Sequence record: MT496971.1
Source of the DNA: Escherichia phage Mt1B1_P10
Direction: 5' to 3' (one strand)
Length of the DNA stretch: 45,359 nucleotides
Within the stretch, counting starts at the first letter, position 1. Each line of letters starts with the position of its first letter. Below the pieces are notes generated by a model, which was given only the letters and a program-made list of their open reading frames with translations, was not told the DNA's origin and ran no database searches. Shown piece after piece: positions 5,255 to 19,602 of the stretch. Made by a program: the position numbers and the translations under genes.

Positions 5255-5599
5255 TTACCATCGTGCACATCCATCTCTTACATCAATGTGGGTGAAATTA
5301 GGATAAGACCCAATGCCATATTTATTGGGGTAGCGTGCTGTAAGATAAGACCATACACGGTAAGGTGTAATGCCTTGTACCTTAATGTCAGCAGCCTTAC
5401 CAGTAAGATGCATGGAGTTCTTAGCTCCACCTACGTTGGCATTGTGCTTAGCACAGCGATGACCAGAGGTAATAACCACAGGGGCACCGAAATACTCACG
5501 CACATCTGTGACCACCTGTAGTAGCTCAGCATCAACTGTGGATGTACCGCACCCACAACGGCAAGCAAACTCTTTACGCTTGAAGTGTCTATTAAGCAT
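5255..5599 (-). CDS. Endolysin, peptidase M15-like zinc peptidase, 114 aa
   Basis: Motifs KEFACRCGCG, ITSGHRC...HNANVGGAKNSMHLTGKAADI resemble the M15 (D-Ala-D-Ala carboxypeptidase-like) fold. Start taken at the ATG with a GAGG SD (5599); the first ATG at 5611 is also possible. Confidence 0.8.
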   Translation of the reverse strand: MLNRHFKRKEFACRCGCGTSTVDAELLQVVTDVREYFGAPVVITSGHRCAKHNANVGGAKNSMHLTGKAADIKVQGITPYRVWSYLTARYPNKYGIGSYPNFTHIDVRDGCARW

Positions 5600-5620
5600 C
5601 ACCGACCTCATCTGTTACAA

Positions 5621-6355: not shown

Positions 6356-8252
6356 AATAAGTCCTTGAAATCCTTGCAGAAAGTGTATTTCGATTTGCCG
6401 ATTTACTCCTGTAATTCTGACCGTACACTCTTTGCTGCATAGCCACGGAAGTGTTGGTTACTCTTCGCTCAGTGCCATAATCTCCATAGAGCATCGCCCT
6501 ACGGAGGTGAGGTGTGTTCATAGCATGGATGTAATCGCGCATCTCCTGCGCTCTGAGGCGATTAATCCGTGTAACCTCATCATAGTCTATCTGAGAAGTT
6601 AATTGCCGTATAGCGCCATACAGAGCGTCTAAGCGGTCATCGTGCCGGAGGCTGTTCTTCTCAATCGTGATGTTCGACATTTGATTGAAAAGGCTGTAGG
6701 ACATGCGTAGCTCAAGCGGATAGTTCTGTACCGAATCAAAGTCCGATTTCACCATCTCTGCGTTAAAGATGAGCCTGTGGGCCGCCATGAGTGGCTCTAG
6801 CGTCTCAATGATACGCAACTCTTTCTGTCCGGTGGCGTAATCCTCCTCCAGAGTCACAGGCCATTCTCGTTCAAAGTAAGGCTTAATTACCGCCTCAAAC
6901 GCGCCATGACCAAAGTTCTTTTCAATGAATACCTCTTTAACACCAGCCTGCTTTGCGGCCTGCACAATGCGATTCAGGGACGATTCGCGGTATCCGCCTG
7001 GCACGCCGAAGCACTGATACACGTAAATGAATGTGCCGTGCAGGAAGACAATCGCTACACCCGTTTCATCTCCATTCTTACCGCCGCCCGCTGGGTCGAT
7101 ATACATAATCTTGCGGGTAACAGCACCCCATTCATATGGGCGAGCCACAGGTCGATACATGAAGTCTGTAGGTTTATTGCCATACTTCGGTGCATCTCCA
7201 ATGATGTTGATGGAGTCGTTGCTCCACGTAGGCATCACAGGGACTTCCTCAGTACCGAATGAAGTGAAGATGAGATTGTTTAGACGAAGTGGGTATCTGT
7301 CAGCATCCATCATGCGAGTGTTAAGCATGAACTGAAGCTGGAACTTAGCCGCACCCTGAGAGATTTCCTTCTCAATCAGCACTTCATCGTCGTACATTTC
7401 AGGTGCGCAAGGTGCACCACTGTTACCGTCCAACCCATAACCAGAGCGAAGTGCGGGGTTGTCCTTCATATCCTGCACAATCATAGGTGCAAGGAAGTCA
7501 CCATAGCATTGCTCCTGCTCCACTGAAGGATAACGTGCAGTCCAGATACGAACAGAGTAACCACGAGCAGGTAAGTTATTGTAGATAGAGTTTACGTTCT
7601 GAGGTGTCCCAAGGTAGATGATGTCACCAAATTGGTTAATAGATTCAAATTCCTTGGTCAACTCCTCAAGCAATGCACGGCCTGCTGCTGTACGAGCATT
7701 CTGCATCGATTCAACGTCATCCGCTAGAATAATATCAGCACGAGCACCCTGCATACCTGCTTCGATTGAGTAACAGGATACAGAGGGGGACTTATCGCTA
7801 CCACGTAGGGTGTAATGAATCTCAAATGCTTTAACGGATGCACGGTCCCCTGCGTAGATATCCGGCAGCATAAACTCAAGGAAGTCTAGGCCACGGAAGA
7901 TTTTCACCACCCAACCAGCGATTTCCTCTGCTCGCTTAGCGTTTTGGGATACAACCATGATACGCTTATGCGGTTCGTGGATAATACGAAATACCGTATA
8001 GATTGCTGATAGTGTTGTCTTAGCGATACCACGAGGCGCTTCGATGAGGCGATACTTATGCCCGTAGAATAGGAACTTCAAGATATCAGCCTGCATACGA
8101 ATCAGATGAGGGTTGCCTGCAATCAAGTTATGGATAACTGTATCTGCAAAGAGAAGCAAACCTTCCGCTGTATATTTAAAAGTGTCTTGTAGTTCTTTAA
8201 GGTTTTCCCACCGCTTTAATGCCTCTGCCTGTGATTCTCTAGCCTTTGCCAT
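6354..8252 (-). CDS. Terminase large subunit (T7 gp19-like), 632 aa
   Basis: Walker-A-like RGIAKTT, LQFMLN motif and overall similarity to T7 gp19 as recalled. Start moved to ATG at 8252 (SD AAGGAG), which overlaps the HNH stop. Confidence 0.9.
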   Translation of the reverse strand: MAKARESQAEALKRWENLKELQDTFKYTAEGLLLFADTVIHNLIAGNPHLIRMQADILKFLFYGHKYRLIEAPRGIAKTTLSAIYTVFRIIHEPHKRIMVVSQNAKRAEEIAGWVVKIFRGLDFLEFMLPDIYAGDRASVKAFEIHYTLRGSDKSPSVSCYSIEAGMQGARADIILADDVESMQNARTAAGRALLEELTKEFESINQFGDIIYLGTPQNVNSIYNNLPARGYSVRIWTARYPSVEQEQCYGDFLAPMIVQDMKDNPALRSGYGLDGNSGAPCAPEMYDDEVLIEKEISQGAAKFQLQFMLNTRMMDADRYPLRLNNLIFTSFGTEEVPVMPTWSNDSINIIGDAPKYGNKPTDFMYRPVARPYEWGAVTRKIMYIDPAGGGKNGDETGVAIVFLHGTFIYVYQCFGVPGGYRESSLNRIVQAAKQAGVKEVFIEKNFGHGAFEAVIKPYFEREWPVTLEEDYATGQKELRIIETLEPLMAAHRLIFNAEMVKSDFDSVQNYPLELRMSYSLFNQMSNITIEKNSLRHDDRLDALYGAIRQLTSQIDYDEVTRINRLRAQEMRDYIHAMNTPHLRRAMLYGDYGTERRVTNTSVAMQQRVYGQNYRSKSANRNTLSARISRTY

Positions 8253-8682
8253 TTCGCCACTCCTTAAAGAGAGAAGAAACTCTTGGTTCACTTTTACCAG
8301 TAAGTCTAGCGGTTTCTGCTACACCCTTACCTTGCAAGAAGCAATCTTTTAATCTTGCTAAATAGCTATTTAAGGCACTCCTATCATTTCCATTGCATTT
8401 TAAATAGTTATTCTCGCTTCTTGTTACCCACTCCAAGTTGCTAACATCATTGTTGTGCTTATCGCCGTCTTTGTGGTTTACTTCATTATTAGTTTTAGGT
8501 AAATACTTATAAGCCACTAATTGATGAACATAGACATTACGCCATTTACCTTCTTTATTTTTAATTTTAACTGCTAAATAACCCCTACCCGCCTTGAATG
8601 GTTTGAGAGGGGTGCCACCCTTTGAAAGGATGACACCAGAAGGTAAGATGGTATAACCTTGAGATTCACACCATCTATGCAT
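8239..8682 (-). CDS. HNH homing endonuclease (NUMOD4-like N-terminus, HNH core, C-terminal HTH-like), 147 aa
   Basis: VNHKDGDKHNNDVSNLEW and HQLVAY motifs; paralog of the HNH at 38540-38896. ATG at 8682 uses the last two codons (GAGGAG) of the upstream gene as its SD; its 3' end overlaps the terminase start. Confidence 0.8.
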   Translation of the reverse strand: MHRWCESQGYTILPSGVILSKGGTPLKPFKAGRGYLAVKIKNKEGKWRNVYVHQLVAYKYLPKTNNEVNHKDGDKHNNDVSNLEWVTRSENNYLKCNGNDRSALNSYLARLKDCFLQGKGVAETARLTGKSEPRVSSLFKEWRNGKG

Positions 8683-9170: not shown

Positions 9171-10133
9171 TTATGCTGTGATAATCTTAGCAGTCATCCG
9201 GCACTCTGGTACTCTTTCTGAGAAAGTAACAATGACACCGTCTACCTGATAAGCAAGTTTAGGTTGTAATAATCCATCAAGGTAGACCTCAATGTACTTA
9301 AATGCAGAGCCAATCTGTACTACTTGTTGGCCTTCTACTAAGTCAAAGTTCAACTCTAACTGAATATTAGGTTCAGATGTAGCCACACGACTGCCAATCA
9401 GCACATACACCTCTGTGCCAGCCACAAGTGGCTCTGCGAAAGTGATAGTGTTGCTGCTTATAGAGTATGCGCCTACGATTTGGTGTTGCAAGACCCCATT
9501 AAGGAAAACTAGTGCATCTTGAAATTCATAAGGAGGTTTTACGGAAACCTCACCTCCTTGGGCGATCGTGTACCAAGGGATAGTTCTGTGCGCAATACCA
9601 GAAGTCATACCTGCTTTAAGGCCAGCAATCTCAATATCCTGTTTGGTGTTCCAATCTGTATGCTTCTTGTCAATGGCATCAAGCTGCCCTTTATTTACTG
9701 CATCTCCCGGATTTGTGCCATCAGCCAAATCAGTAATCTTATTGCCGCCCCAGCTTACATTCTGTTTAATGAAGTACCCTTCTGGATAAAACCCGTCAAG
9801 TAACTCCTGTGTAATCTCCAGTATATGAATGAAAGAACCATTTAAAGACTTCATATCCAAGGTAACACCACGGTCAAACTCAGCGTATGGATATTCCTTT
9901 TGTACTTCCCTTCGAATACGGAACTTCAAACCTGCAACTGGTGCTACATCAAAAGTAATCTGGTGCGTGCCAGTTAGTTGCCAGCCAGATGTAACCTCAA
10001 TCCAAGTGTTACCTTGAAGAGATTCCACTATCACATCTGAGGCACGAAGATAACCTTTATCCCTACCAGCAAAGCTAAAGGGATAGGTTACTTGCGTACC
10101 GTTGGCTATATGTTCTGTGAAAGTATAACTCAT
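9171..10133 (-). CDS. Tail fiber-like adaptor (T7 gp17 N-terminal-domain-like), 320 aa
   Basis: Position after the internal virion proteins and before the holin; too short to be a fiber itself; likely docks the two tailspikes. Start is ATG at 10133, overlapping the upstream stop (ATGA). Confidence 0.65.
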   Translation of the reverse strand: MSYTFTEHIANGTQVTYPFSFAGRDKGYLRASDVIVESLQGNTWIEVTSGWQLTGTHQITFDVAPVAGLKFRIRREVQKEYPYAEFDRGVTLDMKSLNGSFIHILEITQELLDGFYPEGYFIKQNVSWGGNKITDLADGTNPGDAVNKGQLDAIDKKHTDWNTKQDIEIAGLKAGMTSGIAHRTIPWYTIAQGGEVSVKPPYEFQDALVFLNGVLQHQIVGAYSISSNTITFAEPLVAGTEVYVLIGSRVATSEPNIQLELNFDLVEGQQVVQIGSAFKYIEVYLDGLLQPKLAYQVDGVIVTFSERVPECRMTAKIITA

Positions 10134-13100
10134 CAATCCTCCAGTTCATCTAAGCCATAACGCAATGCGTTCTGGATTCCTATTACATTAGTTAGAGGCA
10201 CTAAGCGCAAAGCCCTACGTGCCACATCTACACCTTCTGTATCACCCTCTGCATATTTAGTTATAGAATCTGCTAAACGATATGCATCTTGACCAACACC
10301 TACTAGTGGTATTTGGTCTATCAAACCCTTAGTCTGAAAGCCAGCCTCATAACGGGATTGTACTAACTCAGAAGGGAGAACACCTAGGCCTCCTAAGAAG
10401 TCTCCACCTAAGCTAAACACAGCAGTTGTACTCATCATACCCATAGCACCAAAAGCCAACCCTTTAGGGGATAGTTTCTCTTCCAGATATTCATCTTGGT
10501 CTTCTCGTCCAATAGAGTTCACATAAGCTTTCGCTGCATACACTATTGAACCTAAAGCGAAACCATAGGCTGTCTTCTTAGCAAGACCAATCTTATCGTG
10601 GCGAATGCCTCGACCAAATTGCTTCTCACCAGATACCAAAGAGAAAGACTTAAGCTGTGCAAAAGTTTTACCAAGCGCTTTGTTCATCCAGATTCCTTCA
10701 TCACCAATGAAGTTACGTTGGATAATTAGACCTGACTTACGACGAATAGCATTAGCTAAAGTTTCACCCATGGCATAAGGCATTGTATCAAATCCAAGCA
10801 AGCCAGAACCTTTAGAGTTAGCATCATAGTGCTTCTGTAGGTTAGTCATGAACTCCTGAGTAAGACCAAGTTCCTCCAATTTCTTCTGAGGAATAACCTT
10901 CTTGCCTTCAAGGTGGTCAATGAAAGACAAAGCTATTTGCCTATTGGTCATTCGCTCCAGAGAACCCTGTGCCATGCGGAAGAGTGATAGGTTGGTCTGA
11001 GCACGACGTATTGAGTTCATGGATTGGTCAAAGTGAGCCATCATACCTTTTACTGTGGTTACATCACCAAACTCATCTGGACGTGCACCCTTAGTTGTTA
11101 GCCAGTTATCCTCACCAATGTAACCTACCATCCTCTCTACTTCTGCCAAGTTCTTATCTCGGAAGAAGCCATCACCACTCCGCAAAGCCTTAGATGTAAA
11201 GCGGAATTGCTTACCTAAAGCTAGGGTGGTTGCAGCAATACCAAACTCGCCCATGAAGTTAGCAAGTTCACCTAGCTGTGCGAACCCCATCTGGCCTAAG
11301 CGAAGTACACCTGTAATGTCACGACCACGACGCATCATTTTATTAGACAAAGTCTGTGGGTCTGCATCGATAGATTTACCCATAATTAAGCGAAGCCCTT
11401 CTCGCATCTGACGGATTTCTTCATCAACAGCCAGACCTGCTGCTTCATCTTTCTCTTTCAATTTAAGTCTCTTCTTTAACTCTTCAATCTTCTCTTGTGC
11501 CTTCTTGTAATCAGGCTCTGATTGACGAATCTTAGCAGACTCCGCTTCAAATTGTGCGTGTGCTTTTGTATCTTTAGCTGCATTTCGTGCATTTCGCTCT
11601 ACAAGGTCAATTGCACTAAGTGCAGCCTGATAGGTAGAGAAACCTTGACGAGCCAAGGCAGCACCACCTGCCGCTTCCTTCATGTAGTTATCTGTTAACT
11701 CTTCCACGTTAGTGTTCATAAAGTCACGCATACGAATGCCATTGTACTCTTGAGTAACATCTAAGCCTAAACTCATCTTAGCTCGGTTAGAGATATTATC
11801 TCTGGTTTCTTTATTATCCAGAGCTTCTACCATCTTTTCAATCTCTTCATCACTAAAGCCTGCTTTGCGCATGAGTGCTTCATATTCTGCTTTGGTTTGA
11901 CCAGACATAGCCTTTTCAAAGCTAAGCTGTCCGGTCAAGGTGGCATCAGCAACGCGGTTTACTTGTGCACGTGCAATATCATCAGCCACTTCCTTTGGAA
12001 TCTTACGAGAACCATTCTGGTATGCACGAGAGAATAGCTCAATGATGTCCTCTTTATCGTGCATACCTAATTGACGACGAGCCTTCATACTGTCAAAAAT
12101 ATCAGGCATGTACTTATCATCTGCTTTAACCTTTTCAAACCCAGCTTCACCAGAGCGTTGACGTAATGCTAATGCTTCACGATACATAGCTTGCTGCCCC
12201 TCTGCTGCCATACGGATAGACTTAGGCGTAGACTCATCCATACCGATGCGTACAGCTTCCCATACCTTCTCATTGTATTGCTGCACATAGTGAGAGTTAG
12301 TATGACCTGCAACCGGATTGATATTATTCTCTTTGAGCCATAAATCGAACCCATCGTTGAAACGATTCATATCAGCAGATTTCAGACGGTTCAAGTTAGT
12401 ATTCTGCATGAGACTAGCCGATGCCTTCTGTGCACCTAAGCCTTGCGGGGACTCAAACAGGCGAGCACCAAGACCGCGTACACTTGCATCCTGAGAGGAA
12501 TGTACGACAGTACCAAGGGCAGACAGAGTTCCGGCCCAGCGGCGAGGGGTCATGTCAATAGCGTTCCCTTCCCTCTGCAATGTTTTCAGCAAGTCTTCAC
12601 CTTTACTAGATATATCAAATACGCCCTCAGTGAGTACCTCTTCACCCTTAACACGCATCGCACCTATACTGTCATCGGCAACGGCACGAACATAGCGGTC
12701 CCCTGCGTCTGCACTGCGCACAACACTCGCAGCCCTGTCATCCCCTTGCTCGCTGAGCTTAGTGGCCCTACCACGCGCTACAGCGCCAATAACGCCACCC
12801 ATAGCCATACCGGAGCCTAGTGCTACCATAATGTCATCTAAATCACGAGTCATGTCGCCTTGTACTAACACGGATTCAATAGCGGCATTACTCACGCCAG
12901 CGGCGATAGCGCCACGCACGGCACGACCTACGAGGCCGACTTTGGCTGCACCGCCAGTTGGGATAGAGGCAACCCAACCCACTGGGTCAAGCACAGCAGC
13001 GCCAATCGTTGCCACAGAGCCAGCCCAGCCAGCCTGCGCAATACGTTTATTACGCTCAAGGTCTTCATCAGCGTTCTGAATACGGAAGTTTAATTCATCC

Positions 13101-13441
13101 TCAGACCTAACACCCTCAGTGATTGTCTGCATCATATCCGTTCCGTATTTGAAGCGAAGAGCTTCACGTTGCTCAGGTTGTATCTCAAAGTCTGGTTGAG
13201 GTGTGAAATCAGCAGTGGCACGGTCATACCACCGCTTGCCTCCGAATGCCAACCACTCATTCTGGAAGGCAGCACCTACAGCACCTAAAATATCAGCGTC
13301 AGCTTTAGCTTCAAGAACTTGCTCTTGTAACTCATTACGCTGGCGTATCGTAGGAGCCGATACCGGAGCCGCCTCAATAGAAAACGGCTCAGGAGTAGAC
13401 TGGACATATCCAGCCCAATTAGTCTTAATGTCTTGTTCCAT
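10133..13441 (-). CDS. Internal virion (ejection) protein, large (T7 gp16 position), 1102 aa
   Basis: Size, position and Ala/Gly-rich segments; ATG with SD GGAGG. Confidence 0.7.
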   Translation of the reverse strand: MEQDIKTNWAGYVQSTPEPFSIEAAPVSAPTIRQRNELQEQVLEAKADADILGAVGAAFQNEWLAFGGKRWYDRATADFTPQPDFEIQPEQREALRFKYGTDMMQTITEGVRSEDELNFRIQNADEDLERNKRIAQAGWAGSVATIGAAVLDPVGWVASIPTGGAAKVGLVGRAVRGAIAAGVSNAAIESVLVQGDMTRDLDDIMVALGSGMAMGGVIGAVARGRATKLSEQGDDRAASVVRSADAGDRYVRAVADDSIGAMRVKGEEVLTEGVFDISSKGEDLLKTLQREGNAIDMTPRRWAGTLSALGTVVHSSQDASVRGLGARLFESPQGLGAQKASASLMQNTNLNRLKSADMNRFNDGFDLWLKENNINPVAGHTNSHYVQQYNEKVWEAVRIGMDESTPKSIRMAAEGQQAMYREALALRQRSGEAGFEKVKADDKYMPDIFDSMKARRQLGMHDKEDIIELFSRAYQNGSRKIPKEVADDIARAQVNRVADATLTGQLSFEKAMSGQTKAEYEALMRKAGFSDEEIEKMVEALDNKETRDNISNRAKMSLGLDVTQEYNGIRMRDFMNTNVEELTDNYMKEAAGGAALARQGFSTYQAALSAIDLVERNARNAAKDTKAHAQFEAESAKIRQSEPDYKKAQEKIEELKKRLKLKEKDEAAGLAVDEEIRQMREGLRLIMGKSIDADPQTLSNKMMRRGRDITGVLRLGQMGFAQLGELANFMGEFGIAATTLALGKQFRFTSKALRSGDGFFRDKNLAEVERMVGYIGEDNWLTTKGARPDEFGDVTTVKGMMAHFDQSMNSIRRAQTNLSLFRMAQGSLERMTNRQIALSFIDHLEGKKVIPQKKLEELGLTQEFMTNLQKHYDANSKGSGLLGFDTMPYAMGETLANAIRRKSGLIIQRNFIGDEGIWMNKALGKTFAQLKSFSLVSGEKQFGRGIRHDKIGLAKKTAYGFALGSIVYAAKAYVNSIGREDQDEYLEEKLSPKGLAFGAMGMMSTTAVFSLGGDFLGGLGVLPSELVQSRYEAGFQTKGLIDQIPLVGVGQDAYRLADSITKYAEGDTEGVDVARRALRLVPLTNVIGIQNALRYGLDELED

Positions 13442-13505: not shown

Positions 13506-16454
13506 CTACAACTTAACTTTACCTACCTTAGAGCCTTTAGCTAACTTGGTAGGTGCAGCCTCATAAACCTGATACCAGCCATCAGCGCCAATACGTTTAT
13601 GAGTCCATGCAGATACAGAACCTGCTGGCATAGGTCCGCCGAACTTAACCCACATAGACCCATCTTCGCGAGTCTCTACTTCGGTAATCTTAGGTACACC
13701 ACCGGCAGATGCCATATTGTAAGCCTCAGCGCGTCGCTTCAGTAAACCAGGAATACGCTTACCTTCACTGGATGCAGTACCCAGCATTTCGATAAAGCCT
13801 TCTGTAAGCTTACCTGCCTTGAATGCAGCAAGAGCACGCGGTGCATTCTGGATTCCACCTTTACCTAAGTTATAGGTTAAATCCATTAAACCGCGCTGCT
13901 GTGCCGGATGCATCTGGTCGAATGGGATTTTCCAATCACGAGTTGGAGGTACATGCTTCTTGGCATCTTGTTCCATAAGAGCACGGGCCTTACTCTCAGT
14001 GAGCTGAGACATAGAGCCGCGATACGGAACCAGTTCGTCGCCAATCTTAATGTACCCATTTCTCTTTTCTTCTTCCGTAAGGAAGTGACCGTAGCCTACC
14101 GACTCGCCATGTGCATCTTTGTACGGTGTGAAGGTTCCTGTGGCTTTGTTGAAGCCCAGCTTATCGCCATTCTCATCCATAGCTAGCTTGTCATAGAATT
14201 GTTGCATATTGCCTCTATAGTTAATCTCGAAGTTAGAAGGTAGATTCTCACCAGAAGCAAAGGCAGAAGACATGAGGAAATTAGCTAGTCCAAATTTACC
14301 AATATCCTTGGCAGTTGGCTTAGCTGGCATGGGTTCTTGTGCACCGATATCTGTACGATATGGGTGAACATATTCACCTTTATCTCGTTCTTCTACTTTC
14401 TTCTGATAGGCAGAGTCTAGCAGTGAAGTGGTATCTAAAGAAGTGACAGGGATTACTCCAGAAAGAGGGCGACCTGCTGCACCAGCACGAATCACGAAAG
14501 TACCTTTCTGTTCATTGTAATCAATGTATACATCATCCTTAGTTTCCCACTCTTGAAGTTCCTTCTTCAATTCTGGCATTTGTGTTTCTACATACCTACC
14601 AAGCGCCAGAGGTACATCGGTGGGGTTTACACCTTTCCCAACAGACATAAGCATGTCAGATGCAGAAGTGTAATCACCTTTAATGAAATAACCACCGGAA
14701 GTCTTTGCATCCTCTGATTGAGTGTAGCGTTTATTGCCCCAAGTAATTAAAGCCTTCTTGATGGAATCCATGTTACGCATACCGCTAGACCACAGCATAT
14801 TGGCCTTAGCTCGTAACTCTTCTTCTGCAATAGCTTTACCTAAGTCAGATACTTCGGTTTTACCATCAAACCAGCCAGCACCAGATACCTCATCCAGTGC
14901 ATCTCCAATAGCTGAGTTGAACTTCTTGGTTTCTTTCTCAGTACGAGAGAATTTCTGCTGTGCTTCACGGGCAAACCTTGCAGCCTGCAAAGGCGTCTCT
15001 CCCATTTGTAATGCAGTGTTGTAGTTATCCATATAGCCATTCACCGTATCACCAAAGACACCTCGGCTTTCTTCTGGTAACTGTTCCCACAACTGACGAA
15101 TAGTCATTAACTCCTGTGGTTCTCCTTTAGCGAAGTGCTCAGGTGATAGCATAGACTCCATGGCTTTGATACGAGACTCAAAGGTGTCATCCACTAAGCC
15201 TTTGGAGTTCATGAATTGCAGGCGCTGCACTTCCACTGCACCACGAATAGCTTCAGCCTCTTGACTGTAAGGGTCCAAGCCACGTTGTTTGATTTGCTGG
15301 TCTGCATATAGTTGGCTATCCTGTTTGATAACATCAATGTAGGCTTTCTTCTCTTTATCTGTCTTACCTTGGAAGCCAGTCATGCGATCGGAGTAAAGTT
15401 CACGTCGCATATCCTGCATTGCACCTAGCTCTGCATTCTGCTTAGCTCGTTGACGCATCAGTGCTTCTAGTTCTGGATTAGAGAAGACAGAGTTTCCTGT
15501 CAGACTATTAATATGCTGTGCTCGCTCCAGTAATTCTTCATCCGTCAAGTCACCTGCAAGATAGGATTCTTTGACTTCAAAAGACATGCGAGTCACATCA
15601 GCAACATTATTCCTAGCCCAAACTGCATTACCATTAGTGATAGCTGTGATAAGCTGCGGATTCTTAGCATAGACAGAAACACCCTTATCGTCCTTCACGT
15701 ACTTCAAGGCTTCAGCCATGCTAATATCACCACCCTGAGCAAGTGAAATAGCTCGCTCTACCAGCTTCTTATGCATCTGCTCAGGTAATAGTCCTTGAGT
15801 AAATCCCTCGCGGATTCGCTCCTGTAGGGCATAACCAGAAGCTTCGGGGTCAATACTAGAATCCCAAGTAGAAGCCACTCGCCCGTCAAAGGTATCCTCA
15901 CGGTCTGCCTGTTCGCGGTCAAGTTTATGCTGGGTTCGTGTAGCCCAAATCTGAGGCTGCTGTTCTTGGAAGACATTAGTGACCATACGCATAGTATCTT
16001 TGTCACCTTGCAACTCAGGGTATTGCTGGAACAGCTTATTCTGCATCTCATTACGAGAGTCAACCATAAGCTGTGTCCACTCGTCATCCGTTCCTTGGAA
16101 ACGAGTAGCCATGTCTTTCATTCGTGCTGCTTCATCATTAGCTAGCAGTTGAGCTTTGACAAGCATGTTAGCACGAGCGCCACCACGAGTTGCATCCTCA
16201 GAAGGCATTAATCCATTATATGCCCGTTCCATTTGAACAACCTTATCTTCCTCAATCTTTTGATTAAGGATACCAGTGGTTACATCAGCTACACTACTGG
16301 CTGCTCGAATAAGGTCTTCGATAAATCGACTACCGGAGGTAGAAGCTACGCCAGCCTCCACACCTCCAACTCGCTGAGGTGCAAAGGTCATGACATTAGG
16401 AGAAGTGGCCTGCACTTGTGGCAGACCTTGTACTGCTTGTCGCTCAATTGCCAT
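13506..16454 (-). CDS. Internal virion protein with C-terminal lysozyme-like domain, 982 aa
   Basis: YKDAHGESVGYGHFLT parallels the T4-lysozyme (GH24) YKDTEGYYTIGIGHLLT region; ATG start overlaps the upstream stop (TAATG). Confidence 0.7.
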   Translation of the reverse strand: MAIERQAVQGLPQVQATSPNVMTFAPQRVGGVEAGVASTSGSRFIEDLIRAASSVADVTTGILNQKIEEDKVVQMERAYNGLMPSEDATRGGARANMLVKAQLLANDEAARMKDMATRFQGTDDEWTQLMVDSRNEMQNKLFQQYPELQGDKDTMRMVTNVFQEQQPQIWATRTQHKLDREQADREDTFDGRVASTWDSSIDPEASGYALQERIREGFTQGLLPEQMHKKLVERAISLAQGGDISMAEALKYVKDDKGVSVYAKNPQLITAITNGNAVWARNNVADVTRMSFEVKESYLAGDLTDEELLERAQHINSLTGNSVFSNPELEALMRQRAKQNAELGAMQDMRRELYSDRMTGFQGKTDKEKKAYIDVIKQDSQLYADQQIKQRGLDPYSQEAEAIRGAVEVQRLQFMNSKGLVDDTFESRIKAMESMLSPEHFAKGEPQELMTIRQLWEQLPEESRGVFGDTVNGYMDNYNTALQMGETPLQAARFAREAQQKFSRTEKETKKFNSAIGDALDEVSGAGWFDGKTEVSDLGKAIAEEELRAKANMLWSSGMRNMDSIKKALITWGNKRYTQSEDAKTSGGYFIKGDYTSASDMLMSVGKGVNPTDVPLALGRYVETQMPELKKELQEWETKDDVYIDYNEQKGTFVIRAGAAGRPLSGVIPVTSLDTTSLLDSAYQKKVEERDKGEYVHPYRTDIGAQEPMPAKPTAKDIGKFGLANFLMSSAFASGENLPSNFEINYRGNMQQFYDKLAMDENGDKLGFNKATGTFTPYKDAHGESVGYGHFLTEEEKRNGYIKIGDELVPYRGSMSQLTESKARALMEQDAKKHVPPTRDWKIPFDQMHPAQQRGLMDLTYNLGKGGIQNAPRALAAFKAGKLTEGFIEMLGTASSEGKRIPGLLKRRAEAYNMASAGGVPKITEVETREDGSMWVKFGGPMPAGSVSAWTHKRIGADGWYQVYEAAPTKLAKGSKVGKVKL

Positions 16455-17200
16455 TAAATACCTCTTGTTCCAGATGAATATGTACGAGAATCAGTTAAAG
16501 CTTTACCTAAAGCCATGCCGGACTTACTACCTGTTACATAGGCAGATGCCAGACTCGGTATACCTTGCACCAAGGTGCTCACGGCAGAAGGTTTCTTAAA
16601 CTCACGCATCTGCATCTGACCACCACGTTGGATGGACTTAAGCTGGTTTGTGAAGTTAATCTTCTGATTCTCATAGTTATCGATAATTGTACTCTGGTTC
16701 CTTCCGCCTTCTGCTGCTAAGTCATTCAGCATAGAAGACACAGAGTTACCACCAGTACCAGTAGCACCAGCAAGCAATGCAACCTGTGCTCTCTGCTGCA
16801 GTAGTGAAGCCTGATTGCTTATTGCATCCGCATGATACTGTTTAGCAGCAGAGCGTTCTGCATCTGCCACTGTCTTATATGCTTCTTGTGTAGCAATTAA
16901 CTGCTGCCGCCATTGCTCCTCCTGAGCTTTCTTCATAGCTTTGGCTTCATCACTTCCACCAAAAAGATTGCCTAGAAGACCAAGACCTTGCATACCTGCA
17001 CTAAGCAGTCCTGCATTAGAGAAGCCAGCAGAAGAACCTCCTAAGAAACTACCAAGGGAGCCAAGCAAACCTCCGCCACCTGCGGCGGCTGTCCCTCCTG
17101 CTGCTGCGGCAGTACCACCAGCAGCGGCTGCTGCACCGCTACCTGCAAACATACTACCAATAGAAGACATACCAGCCATAACGGCTGAACCTATAGCCAT
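16454..17200 (-). CDS. Internal virion protein, Gly/Ala-rich, 248 aa
   Basis: Start moved to ATG at 17200 (SD AAGGAGGG); the track's GTG start at 17239 is an upstream extension. Confidence 0.6.
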   Translation of the reverse strand: MAIGSAVMAGMSSIGSMFAGSGAAAAAGGTAAAAGGTAAAGGGGLLGSLGSFLGGSSAGFSNAGLLSAGMQGLGLLGNLFGGSDEAKAMKKAQEEQWRQQLIATQEAYKTVADAERSAAKQYHADAISNQASLLQQRAQVALLAGATGTGGNSVSSMLNDLAAEGGRNQSTIIDNYENQKINFTNQLKSIQRGGQMQMREFKKPSAVSTLVQGIPSLASAYVTGSKSGMALGKALTDSRTYSSGTRGI

Positions 17201-19602
17201 TAGACCCTCCTTTTGGTTGGATTGTAGCTCCCTTCCCACTCAATATCGCGAAGCTGGAATGTATGAGGTGATTCTACAATAATACGATAAACAGCATCCG
17301 TGCTCTTGGCCCTCAGTGGGAATCTGAAGACACCCTCCCTTGGTTCAACATAACCTACTGTGTTGTTGAGAGCACCACCTATACGGTTTGACGCTAGCAC
17401 CCTGCGTACTTTACCACTCTTCACATTCTTAACTTCCACGGAGAAATCAGGATACATATCAAGATTAAGGTGAACCAACCCCACAACAGGTACATCAATA
17501 TAGGATACACGGTCTTGCCTATCTCTGATAACTACAGGTGTTGGTTCAAACTCTTGAGGGTAAATCTGACCAACAATAACCTTCGCTTTTACGTGGTTAT
17601 CATCATGCATGTCAAAGGTTGTAGACAAGGTGTTATCACTAGGGTTATATTTGAACAGGAAAGAACCTCCAATGTATGAATCCCACCCTTCTATTAAGAT
17701 GCAATCCAAAAGTTCTGGGTTAGTAGGAGTCCAAGGAAGTGGTTCAGATATCCATTCATCTTCTGCTTTAAAATGCTTGAAGATTAACTCTGCTTGCCTA
17801 TCCATTCTGATGCGGTCATTCAAACCGTAGGTTAGTGCATCACCCATGTCCATCTTCTCCAGATATACGCCATCTCCTCGCTCAAGGAGCAGGTAAAGTA
17901 ATTCACCAGAATAAAACATACCTCGCACCTTTGTACCTATAGGCCACTTCCATACATGCCATGCTGATTGTACACGGTCTGTTCCTTGCCATAACCAATC
18001 GTAGCAGTAGATTATGTTACGATACTTATCGGTAGTGACAAGTAACCTGTTGACATTGGTGCTTGCTGCCATGTTGGTAATGTTACCTTCGATGAGTTTA
18101 TTCACATGACTTGTGATTGCTTGTGCCTTCTTAGTGTCACTATAAGAGTCTGTATAGAACTCTCGTACACCAGAGTAAGAACCATCATTAGTGGCAAACA
18201 TTACCGATTCACCAGTTACTACTGGCTTCACTTTATTGTTCACTTCAAATGTTGTAACAGGCTTAAGCAGTGCATTTGACTTCTCTAAAGGCTTATCGCC
18301 TGGCAGTATGAATTGTGACTTATCAGAGAACAACACGGTAGCGCCATCTAAGGTCACTGCATGTTTTAGCTGGTAGACTTCACTAGCATCTGAGAAAATA
18401 TCAAATGGGTCAGTTGCCAATGCAGAGATAACCGTATAACGAAAGAAATCGAAGAAGTATGATGTACGAGAAGCAATAACCGCTTCACCTGCTGTAAAGC
18501 ATAGGCGGTTCTGCACCATGAACATTCCACCTATTGTCTGGGGTACTTCCTCATCAATAAAAGAGGGCATAGGGTTAGTCAAGTCATCCCCTACTTTACG
18601 ATCTTCCCAATCACCTTGTCTTATCTTGAATTGAGCTATGCCGTCAATGATACCTGTACGTTCAATGATGTAAGGCATTGTGCCTTTATCAAACCCAAGT
18701 AATACATCAGCAGCTATTGTTTCTTTCCAAGACACAAGGTTTCCCTCTTTCGGCTCAGCTTGCAGCCAGTAACGAGACTCAGGTTTGCTGCCAGTAGGCC
18801 ACACTTGCACTTTATAACCAGCAGGCGCACGAGAAGGGAGTAGGTCAGTAGAGCTAACTTTATTCTTGATAGCCACTAAATCCTTGCCTTTTGCACCATC
18901 GGTAGTTGTTACTGTGAAACTTTTACCATCGCGTCTCTCTATAAATATACTCGTACCATCTATTTGTATTTCATAGTCATTCACACCACTCCATTGCTGC
19001 AACTTGGAGTACAATTCAGAAGTGATACGTTCCGTTCGTATTTGTTCAACATGTTCTGCACTTCCCCCATCTGGTGTTTTAAAACTAGCAGCTGTAGTTC
19101 CATTAATTATGATAGAATAAGATGTACCGTATTGACCATATGCACAAAACACAATGGCTTTATCTCCAACTTTAGGTGACTTCCTATTACTAACTTTAAC
19201 CACTTTCCTACGGTTAAGCATAAAAGTAACATCAGCTATAGTCATGAATTGCACATCTTCCCTAGGGTTAACAACTTCAGAAAGGTAGGTCATAGGTGCA
19301 TCTTGAGAGATGACATTGCACTTGCGTCCATGCTTATCAAATATCTCTGGCACTTGCCCCTTCTTTAAGGTGAAGAAATACTCTTCATCTCCCTCACCCC
19401 TGCGATAATGGTGCGTTGCCATATTATCTGTACCTTCATCCAAGAGCTTAGCAATGTGAGTTGTACCCATGCGGGATTGAGTTCCATTCACTACATCAGG
19501 GACCATGTTCACCATAGTCGTACATTGACCATCAAGACGTACCGCTGGAGGTTGCTGGCTAATCCCTTGGATTTGCCTCCCTAATGAACCTTGTACTTCC
19601 AT
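17200..19602 (-). CDS. Tail tubular protein B (T7 gp12-like), 800 aa
   Basis: Size and position; start moved to ATG at 19602 (SD GGGAGG). Confidence 0.8.
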   Translation of the reverse strand: MEVQGSLGRQIQGISQQPPAVRLDGQCTTMVNMVPDVVNGTQSRMGTTHIAKLLDEGTDNMATHHYRRGEGDEEYFFTLKKGQVPEIFDKHGRKCNVISQDAPMTYLSEVVNPREDVQFMTIADVTFMLNRRKVVKVSNRKSPKVGDKAIVFCAYGQYGTSYSIIINGTTAASFKTPDGGSAEHVEQIRTERITSELYSKLQQWSGVNDYEIQIDGTSIFIERRDGKSFTVTTTDGAKGKDLVAIKNKVSSTDLLPSRAPAGYKVQVWPTGSKPESRYWLQAEPKEGNLVSWKETIAADVLLGFDKGTMPYIIERTGIIDGIAQFKIRQGDWEDRKVGDDLTNPMPSFIDEEVPQTIGGMFMVQNRLCFTAGEAVIASRTSYFFDFFRYTVISALATDPFDIFSDASEVYQLKHAVTLDGATVLFSDKSQFILPGDKPLEKSNALLKPVTTFEVNNKVKPVVTGESVMFATNDGSYSGVREFYTDSYSDTKKAQAITSHVNKLIEGNITNMAASTNVNRLLVTTDKYRNIIYCYDWLWQGTDRVQSAWHVWKWPIGTKVRGMFYSGELLYLLLERGDGVYLEKMDMGDALTYGLNDRIRMDRQAELIFKHFKAEDEWISEPLPWTPTNPELLDCILIEGWDSYIGGSFLFKYNPSDNTLSTTFDMHDDNHVKAKVIVGQIYPQEFEPTPVVIRDRQDRVSYIDVPVVGLVHLNLDMYPDFSVEVKNVKSGKVRRVLASNRIGGALNNTVGYVEPREGVFRFPLRAKSTDAVYRIIVESPHTFQLRDIEWEGSYNPTKRRV

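Follow-up and report, generated by a model that had tools for sequence, protein, structure and literature searches.

The window analyzed here is a 45,359-nucleotide sequence of Escherichia phage Mt1B1_P10 (MT496971.1), and the gene in question, at positions 13506 to 16454, encodes a 982-amino-acid (aa) internal virion protein that carries a lysozyme-like domain. Translation of this stretch on the plus strand was full of stops and that reading was rejected; the gene lies on the minus strand, as an uninterrupted open reading frame of 982 codons. Vectrevirus genome records matched the 2,949-base stretch at 99.2% identity, many K1-5/K1E-like coliphages matched it at 93-98%, and the order of the late-region genes matched that of the annotated relative AAPEc6 throughout. 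These matches identify the window as the genome of a Vectrevirus (Autographiviridae, Molineuxvirinae, SP6/K1-5/K1E group) in reverse complement. The 982-aa protein matched PHROG 4290, 'lysozyme domain-containing protein', end to end. It was identical to K1-5 gp38 (YP_654136.1) at 963 of 982 residues (98%), with none of the 19 substitutions at E761, D780 or S785. Its C-terminal 280 aa shared approximately 64% identity with SP6 gp36. It shares gene order and an EN...YKD...GYGH motif with K1-5 gp38, K1E gp35 and SP6 gp36, and it is the orthologue of these three proteins. The gene and its parts are as follows.

13506..16454, minus strand: gene of the 982-aa internal virion (ejection) protein, in the position of T7 gene 15 (uninterrupted open reading frame, translation, PHROG 4290, identity to K1-5 gp38)
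14382..16271, minus strand: N-terminal body, aa 62-691, predicted to be almost wholly alpha-helical (AlphaFold2 and DSSP helices from 59 to 691)
13710..14222, minus strand: GH24 (T4-lysozyme-like) muramidase domain, aa 745-915
14172..14174, minus strand: codon of E761, proposed general acid and equivalent of T4 lysozyme Glu11 (invariance, hhalign, end of a helix)
14136..14165, minus strand: 10-residue insertion D764-G773 (DKLGFNKATG), after the catalytic Glu and ahead of strand beta1 (hhalign gap, AlphaFold2)
14076..14123, minus strand: motif YKDAHGESVGYGHFLT, aa 778-793, which holds D780 and S785
14115-14117, minus strand: codon of D780, equivalent of Asp20
14100-14102, minus strand: codon of S785, equivalent of Thr26
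13509..13703, minus strand: C-terminal beta-rich domain of approximately 65 aa, aa 918-982 (AlphaFold2 strands 923-928, 934-938, 960-964 and 978-981)

The lysozyme-like character of the domain was evident in searches by sequence and by structure. Residues 776-910 matched Pfam PF00959 Phage_lysozyme with an E-value of 1.6e-9 and 38.6 bits, against a gathering score of 22.3, so that the motif YKDAHGESVGYGHFLT, which an earlier note made from the sequence alone had singled out as lysozyme-like, lies inside a match far beyond chance. In a plain sequence search of solved proteins, T4 lysozyme was the only kind of protein matched, and D780 paired with Asp20 and S785 with Thr26 over a one-residue gap. 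The family profile found GH24 endolysins among the PDB sequences with an E-value of 2e-17. The same note had asked for a domain search and a structure prediction and had counted the lack of a predicted GH24-like fold against its reading; a GH24-like fold was predicted. An AlphaFold2 model of aa 700-982, built on a 44-sequence alignment, reached a mean predicted local distance difference test (pLDDT) score of 91.7 and a predicted template modeling (pTM) score of 0.85. The predicted domain has the two-lobed fold of T4 lysozyme, and Foldseek against the PDB returned the phage 21 endolysin R21, DLP12, T4 lysozyme and a fungal GH24 muramidase, each with a probability of 1.00. The closest structural neighbors are muramidases.

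The full-length AlphaFold2 model (mean pLDDT 79.1, pTM 0.41; secondary structure by DSSP) places this domain in a larger protein. Residues 1-61 were predicted to be disordered, a low-confidence linker occupies aa 693-707, and the body between them, which is presumed to be the tunnel-forming part of the ejection protein, matched no Pfam family. Its extensive helical content (aa 59-691 nearly all helix) agrees with the description of internal virion protein C by Hardies et al. (PMC4819975), which rests on synteny and helical content and allows for a tail lysozyme domain in some members, and the 982-aa protein fits that description. No sequence or fold similarity to T7 gp15 was detected for the N-terminal body. 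The motif had been placed near the C-terminus, but about 190 residues separate the two, and behind the lysozyme domain comes the beta-rich domain of about 65 aa. That C-terminal domain was well predicted (blocks of pLDDT approximately 85-94 in the full-length model and 95-98 in the model of aa 700-982) and is conserved in the alignment of SP6-like orthologues; it matched no Pfam family. It was also seen in metagenomic proteins of approximately 350-430 aa (P0016, P0030, P0034, P0039 and P0049), in which GYGH is changed to GYG[V/I/N].

The position of the catalytic glutamate was the central question. The residue nine positions before D780 is Ala771, and the earlier note was accurate in finding no Glu at the spacing expected from T4 lysozyme; a Glu is nevertheless present 19 residues upstream of D780, at E761. 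The resemblance of the motif to the region around Asp20 and Thr26 also stood in part, in that D780 is the equivalent of Asp20. The Thr that ends the motif, T793, pairs with Thr34 of T4 lysozyme, and the equivalent of Thr26 is S785. When a profile of the family (first row the 982-aa protein) was aligned by hhalign with a profile of canonical GH24 domains (first row T4 lysozyme), the two matched with a probability of 100% and an E-value of 4.2e-41 with a single 10-residue gap at D764-G773. This alignment paired M-D-E761-N with I-D-E11-G, T-F-T-P-Y-K-D780 with R-L-K-I-Y-K-D20, and S785 with T26. In the AlphaFold2 models, E761 was the penultimate residue of the helix 746-762, which ends at E761-N762. 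Glu11 of T4 lysozyme likewise stands at the end of helix A. E761 was invariant in 69 of 69 domains of the subfamily described below, in all 44 sequences of the domain alignment and in all 22 full-length proteins aligned. The other invariant columns were N762, G767 and G789 in the 44-sequence alignment, with M1, H790 and D830 in addition among the full-length proteins. At the position aligned with Thr26, orthologues have T, S or N, and S785 is a conservative hydroxyl replacement.

Taken together, the profile alignment, the invariance and the end-of-helix position argue for a placement of E761 in the active site. The residues by which GH24 is recognized are represented by E761 for the catalytic Glu at the end of the N-terminal helix, D780 for the Asp or Cys at Asp20, and S785 for the Thr at Thr26. 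As judged from the sequence, the residue types of the triad are canonical, with Ser for Thr, and only their linear spacing, E-X18-D-X4-S, is non-canonical. The suggestion of the earlier note that the canonical general-acid Glu might be missing and its place taken by some other, non-canonical catalytic residue did not survive this comparison. It could draw on Ala771 at D780 minus 9 and on the way routine annotation hides any Glu, since the Pfam match opens at profile position 9, past the Glu-bearing start of the model, and the phmmer alignments to PDB sequences open at T4 lysozyme residue 17. However, E761 is invariant across all relatives examined, it pairs with Glu11 of T4 lysozyme at the cost of one 10-residue gap, and it lies at the end of the N-terminal helix, which leaves a non-canonical general acid highly improbable. 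E784 and E794-796 were considered as candidates for the general acid and rejected, as they are not conserved across the subfamily and are positioned after the equivalent of Asp20.

The shift in spacing between the Glu and the Asp is explained by the insertion D764-G773. In the domain model this segment formed beta bridges at 768-769 and 774-775 in a block with a pLDDT of 97-98, followed by strands 778-780 and 783-786, and it is predicted to be an extra beta-hairpin. It holds the conserved G767 (67 of 69 domains) and F768, a position that is aromatic in 61 of 69. A hairpin of this kind would return the chain near its point of departure, so it need not displace the flanking residues. T4 lysozyme and the P22, phage 21 and DLP12 endolysins (Glu-X8-Asp/Cys-X5-Thr) differ from the domain of the 982-aa protein, which has the 10-residue hairpin between Glu and beta1. 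Compared with T4 lysozyme-type GH24 enzymes, it also has Asn for the Gly after Glu and Ser for Thr26, and it is fused in the C-terminal region of a 982-aa virion protein with an extra beta domain after it.

The extent of this variant was examined with the C-terminal 283 aa. A word-indexed homologue search found only 3 proteins, and an exhaustive search of 1.84 billion representative proteins was used instead, which gave 277 matches at E <= 1e-3. Two classes could be read from the sequence upstream of the conserved GxGH among the matches listed, to which the following ranges apply. Class A was canonical, EG-(f/l)-x-x-x-a-Y-x-D-x-x-G-x-x-T-I-G-Y-G-H, with the Glu 17-24 residues before the His. 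Class B, termed 'EN-hairpin', had the form x-E-N-(S/G/A)-x-x-x-G-(F/Y/W)-...-(W/F)-x-P-..., with the Glu 29-36 residues before the His. The 982-aa protein belongs to class B with a Glu-to-His distance of 29. Bridging sequences, such as FEGSGPPKDGKLHPYID and MEGTKRDKKGKFITFPD, had a clear 'EG' and then a similar insertion. N762, like G767, was present in 67 of the 69 class B domains. Nine orthologues from SP6 and from Klebsiella, Proteus, Pectobacterium, Erwinia and Vibrio phages, with identity down to 31%, all had Glu-Asn at E761-N762, at least 19 residues before the Asp. When a metagenomic EN-hairpin domain was used as the tblastn query, the subclass among GenBank phages was essentially limited to the SP6-like Molineuxvirinae and a few Erwinia, Vibrio and Alteromonas phages.

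On the base side of the active site, the residue aligned with Asp20 was Ser in 55 of the 69 EN-hairpin domains ('PH-K-S-x-EGG-x-DT', mostly metagenomic, P0018-P0151), and the 982-aa protein keeps the Asp. An Asp directly before the equivalent of Thr26 was often seen in the metagenomic members. These sequences hint that the metagenomic part of the clade may have moved its catalytic base or may do without it. The SP6/K1-5-type domain could represent a distinct GH24 clade, marked by the invariant Glu-Asn, a hairpin of 10-12 residues and a conserved Gly and aromatic residue before beta1, that breaks the E-X8-(D/C)-X5-T pattern and in which the hairpin and the base-side change could reshape the substrate groove or the mechanism. 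This is advanced as a tentative proposal that we consider possible but doubtful. If it is true, the altered groove or mechanism of the clade could be adapted, for example, to the intact sacculus approached from the periplasmic side during ejection.

A change of chemistry has to be weighed on the same evidence. The domain could be an active glycosidase that acts as a lytic transglycosylase or by some other altered mechanism rather than as an inverting hydrolase, as a result of the remodeled region between the Glu and the Asp/Thr. Its spacing and loop are unlike those of all solved T4 lysozyme-like enzymes, the usual Ser at the Asp20 position suggests a plastic base side across the subfamily, the functionally analogous module of T7 gp16 is a transglycosylase, and zymograms are blind to the difference between the two chemistries. 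In contrast, the 982-aa protein itself has retained the Asp, as D780, and a side chain with a hydroxyl, that of S785, at the base positions of T4 lysozyme, and its nearest structural neighbors are muramidases. We regard an altered chemistry as unlikely, although less so than the loss of the canonical Glu, and a muramidase remains the preferred assignment.

The genes around the 982-aa protein bear on the role of this muramidase. Those needed here are the following.

16454..17239, minus strand: gp14-like internal virion protein, open reading frame of 261 aa, upstream (Pfam PF24072 T7_gp14, E = 1.1e-32; PHROG 805)
10133..13441, minus strand: gp16-like internal virion protein, 1102 aa, downstream (PHROG 342, E = 2.5e-245)
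5255..5611, minus strand: lysis endolysin, 118-aa Peptidase_M15_3 (Pfam PF08291, E = 1.3e-32; endolysin in the AAPEc6 annotation)

The gene lies between the gp14-like and gp16-like genes and downstream of the tail tube genes, in the same order as in AAPEc6, SP6 and K1-5. The start codon overlaps the stop codon of the preceding gp14-like gene by a single base (TAATG, 16452-16456), an arrangement that suggests translational coupling inside the ejection-protein operon. As the earlier note had said, the domain is not in the largest internal protein, which is the 1102-aa product of 10133-13441. The match of that protein to PHROG 342 spanned only profile positions 162-1227 of 1235, and no Pfam family, SLT included, was matched. 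The lytic transglycosylase module of T7 gp16 comprises residues 1-156 (PMC8954989). Because the match starts only at profile position 162, the first 160 or so positions are missing, and the 1102-aa protein is, by sequence, without the N-terminal lytic transglycosylase module of T7 gp16. PHROG 342, the T7 gp16 family, is named 'internal virion protein with endolysin domain', and some GenBank annotations imply the same module. Since the 1102-aa protein is without it, the 'endolysin domain' label on its orthologues is probably a carried-over misnomer. Apart from the GH24 domain, no glycosidase-type module that degrades the wall was found in the ejection-protein operon or the genes examined, and this domain is in the gp15 position, not in gp16. 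T7 gp16 and the 982-aa protein are analogous in role, since each contributes a module that cleaves peptidoglycan and is delivered together with the ejection proteins; they differ in that the T7 module has an SLT-type fold and is carried at the opposite terminus of gp16 rather than by the protein in the gp15 position.

A late role of the domain was also considered, in which it would act mainly as an auxiliary endolysin at the end of infection and not at entry. GH24 domains are common in endolysins, and some GenBank records name the orthologue 'putative endolysin' or 'soluble endolysin'. However, the domain is part of a protein that has an internal-virion body of 700 aa and is encoded in a gp14/15/16-like operon, and the phage has a separate lysis cassette with an M15 endolysin, a holin and a spanin. 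The enzyme of lysis is thus an M15 peptidase and not the GH24 domain; as Peptidase_M15_3 is not a glycosidase, the lysis enzyme and the virion GH24 domain cut different peptidoglycan bonds. A mainly lytic role is the least credible of the explanations considered.

These findings favor the reading that the 982-aa protein is the middle one of three ejection proteins, composed of a helical body, a GH24 muramidase domain with the triad E761/D780/S785 and a small beta domain, and that it cuts peptidoglycan at genome delivery. We give this reading a probability of about 0.85. The virion-borne wall hydrolase for genome ejection that the earlier note had suggested is upheld by the domain search, the predicted fold, the gene position between the gp14-like and gp16-like genes, and published statements on K1-5, K1E and SP6. 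At infection the protein, stored until then in the core of the capsid, would be driven out through the tail, and its muramidase domain would cut the glycan strands of the host peptidoglycan locally. Such a cut would let a conduit of the gp15-like and gp16-like proteins reach the inner membrane. In T7 the same role belongs to the N-terminal lytic transglycosylase of gp16, the module missing from the gp16-like protein of this phage. By analogy with T4 lysozyme, E761 would be the general acid, and D780 and S785 would position the attacking water.

The literature on close relatives is in line with this reading. In Table 2 of Latka et al. 2017 (PMC5380687), which covers virion-associated lysins experimentally detected or putative, SP6 Gp36 and K1-5 Gp38 (YP_654136.1, 109 kDa) are entered as 'Lysozyme' after Moak & Molineux 2004. 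According to PMC5380687, the zymogram of virion proteins that the earlier note had called for was reported for SP6 and K1-5 by Moak & Molineux 2004. The review by Swanson et al. 2022 (Swanson/Cingolani, PMC8954989) lists K1E gp35, likewise of 982 aa, as gp15-like and ascribes lysozyme activity to it, and PMC4837284 recalls a resemblance between the C-terminus of SP6 gp36 and lysozymes of the cell-wall type (Dobbins 2004; Scholl 2004). The muramidase activity of the domain in the 982-aa protein is thus putative, based on its sequence and on the listing of the K1-5 and SP6 relatives, and presence in the virion core and ejection are likewise putative, by analogy with K1E, K1-5 and SP6. An inert domain, which would bind peptidoglycan or play a structural part in the ejection conduit, would be hard to reconcile with the retention of all three triad equivalents, the Glu strictly invariant, and with the muralytic activity reported for SP6 and K1-5 virion proteins of similar size (PMC5380687); we consider it very improbable, about as much so as the use of a non-canonical residue.

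Several points weigh against the muramidase reading. The zymogram evidence for muralytic activity is second-hand, through reviews. The spacing E-X18-D-X4-S departs from the E-X8-(D/C)-X5-T motif that Love et al. (PMC8228626) found in all published T4 lysozyme-like structures, although that rule is a descriptive regularity and not a definition of the GH24 family. No solved structure with the hairpin insertion was found by a profile search of PDB sequences or among the structural neighbors. Finally, the active-site geometry of E761 and D780 is a prediction from the alignment, the invariance of E761 and its helix position.

More distant phages show a similar architecture. In phiKMV gp36 and Ar-KM gp42, as in the 982-aa protein, a lysozyme domain lies near the C-terminus of the middle ejection protein, and the gp16-like protein does not begin with one. 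In a 2026 preprint, cryo-electron microscopy of the phiKMV-like phage Ar-KM shows a T4 lysozyme-like domain in the gp15-like protein; of 127 Autographivirales genomes that carry such domains, the preprint counts 31 in which the tunnel protein has a C-terminal lysozyme. For phiKMV gp36C, experiments have demonstrated muralytic activity (PMC5380687). phiKMV gp36, from the Krylovirinae, differs in having the canonical spacing FEAYRGEAYKDADGYSVGLGH (E-X8-D), no hairpin and no C-terminal beta domain. Because of this spacing, gp36C was rejected as a member of the EN-hairpin class, and it therefore supports the architecture and does not provide direct biochemical support for the hairpin variant.

The lysozyme domain in the 982-aa protein is real, ordinary and already known, given the RefSeq annotation, the near identity to K1-5 gp38 and the reviews of virion-associated lysins and ejection proteins. 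Its orthologues are annotated as 'lysozyme domain-containing protein' in GenBank and RefSeq, and the presence of a lysozyme domain in the gp15-position protein, instead of the transglycosylase of T7 gp16, has been reviewed (PMC8954989, PMC5380687). What these findings add to GH24 is a minor point, namely a subfamily that breaks the published spacing rule by a conserved hairpin insertion and has no structurally solved member. The insertion is the reason that the Glu was missed both by inspection of the spacing and by the Pfam boundaries. The latter, 776-910, exclude the catalytic Glu, so that a recombinant domain needs to start upstream of approximately aa 745 and a catalytic mutant should be made at E761.

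Elsewhere in the window, an open reading frame of 147 aa at 8239-8682 on the minus strand lies between the genes of the small and large terminase subunits, and its counterpart in AAPEc6 is annotated as an HNH endonuclease.

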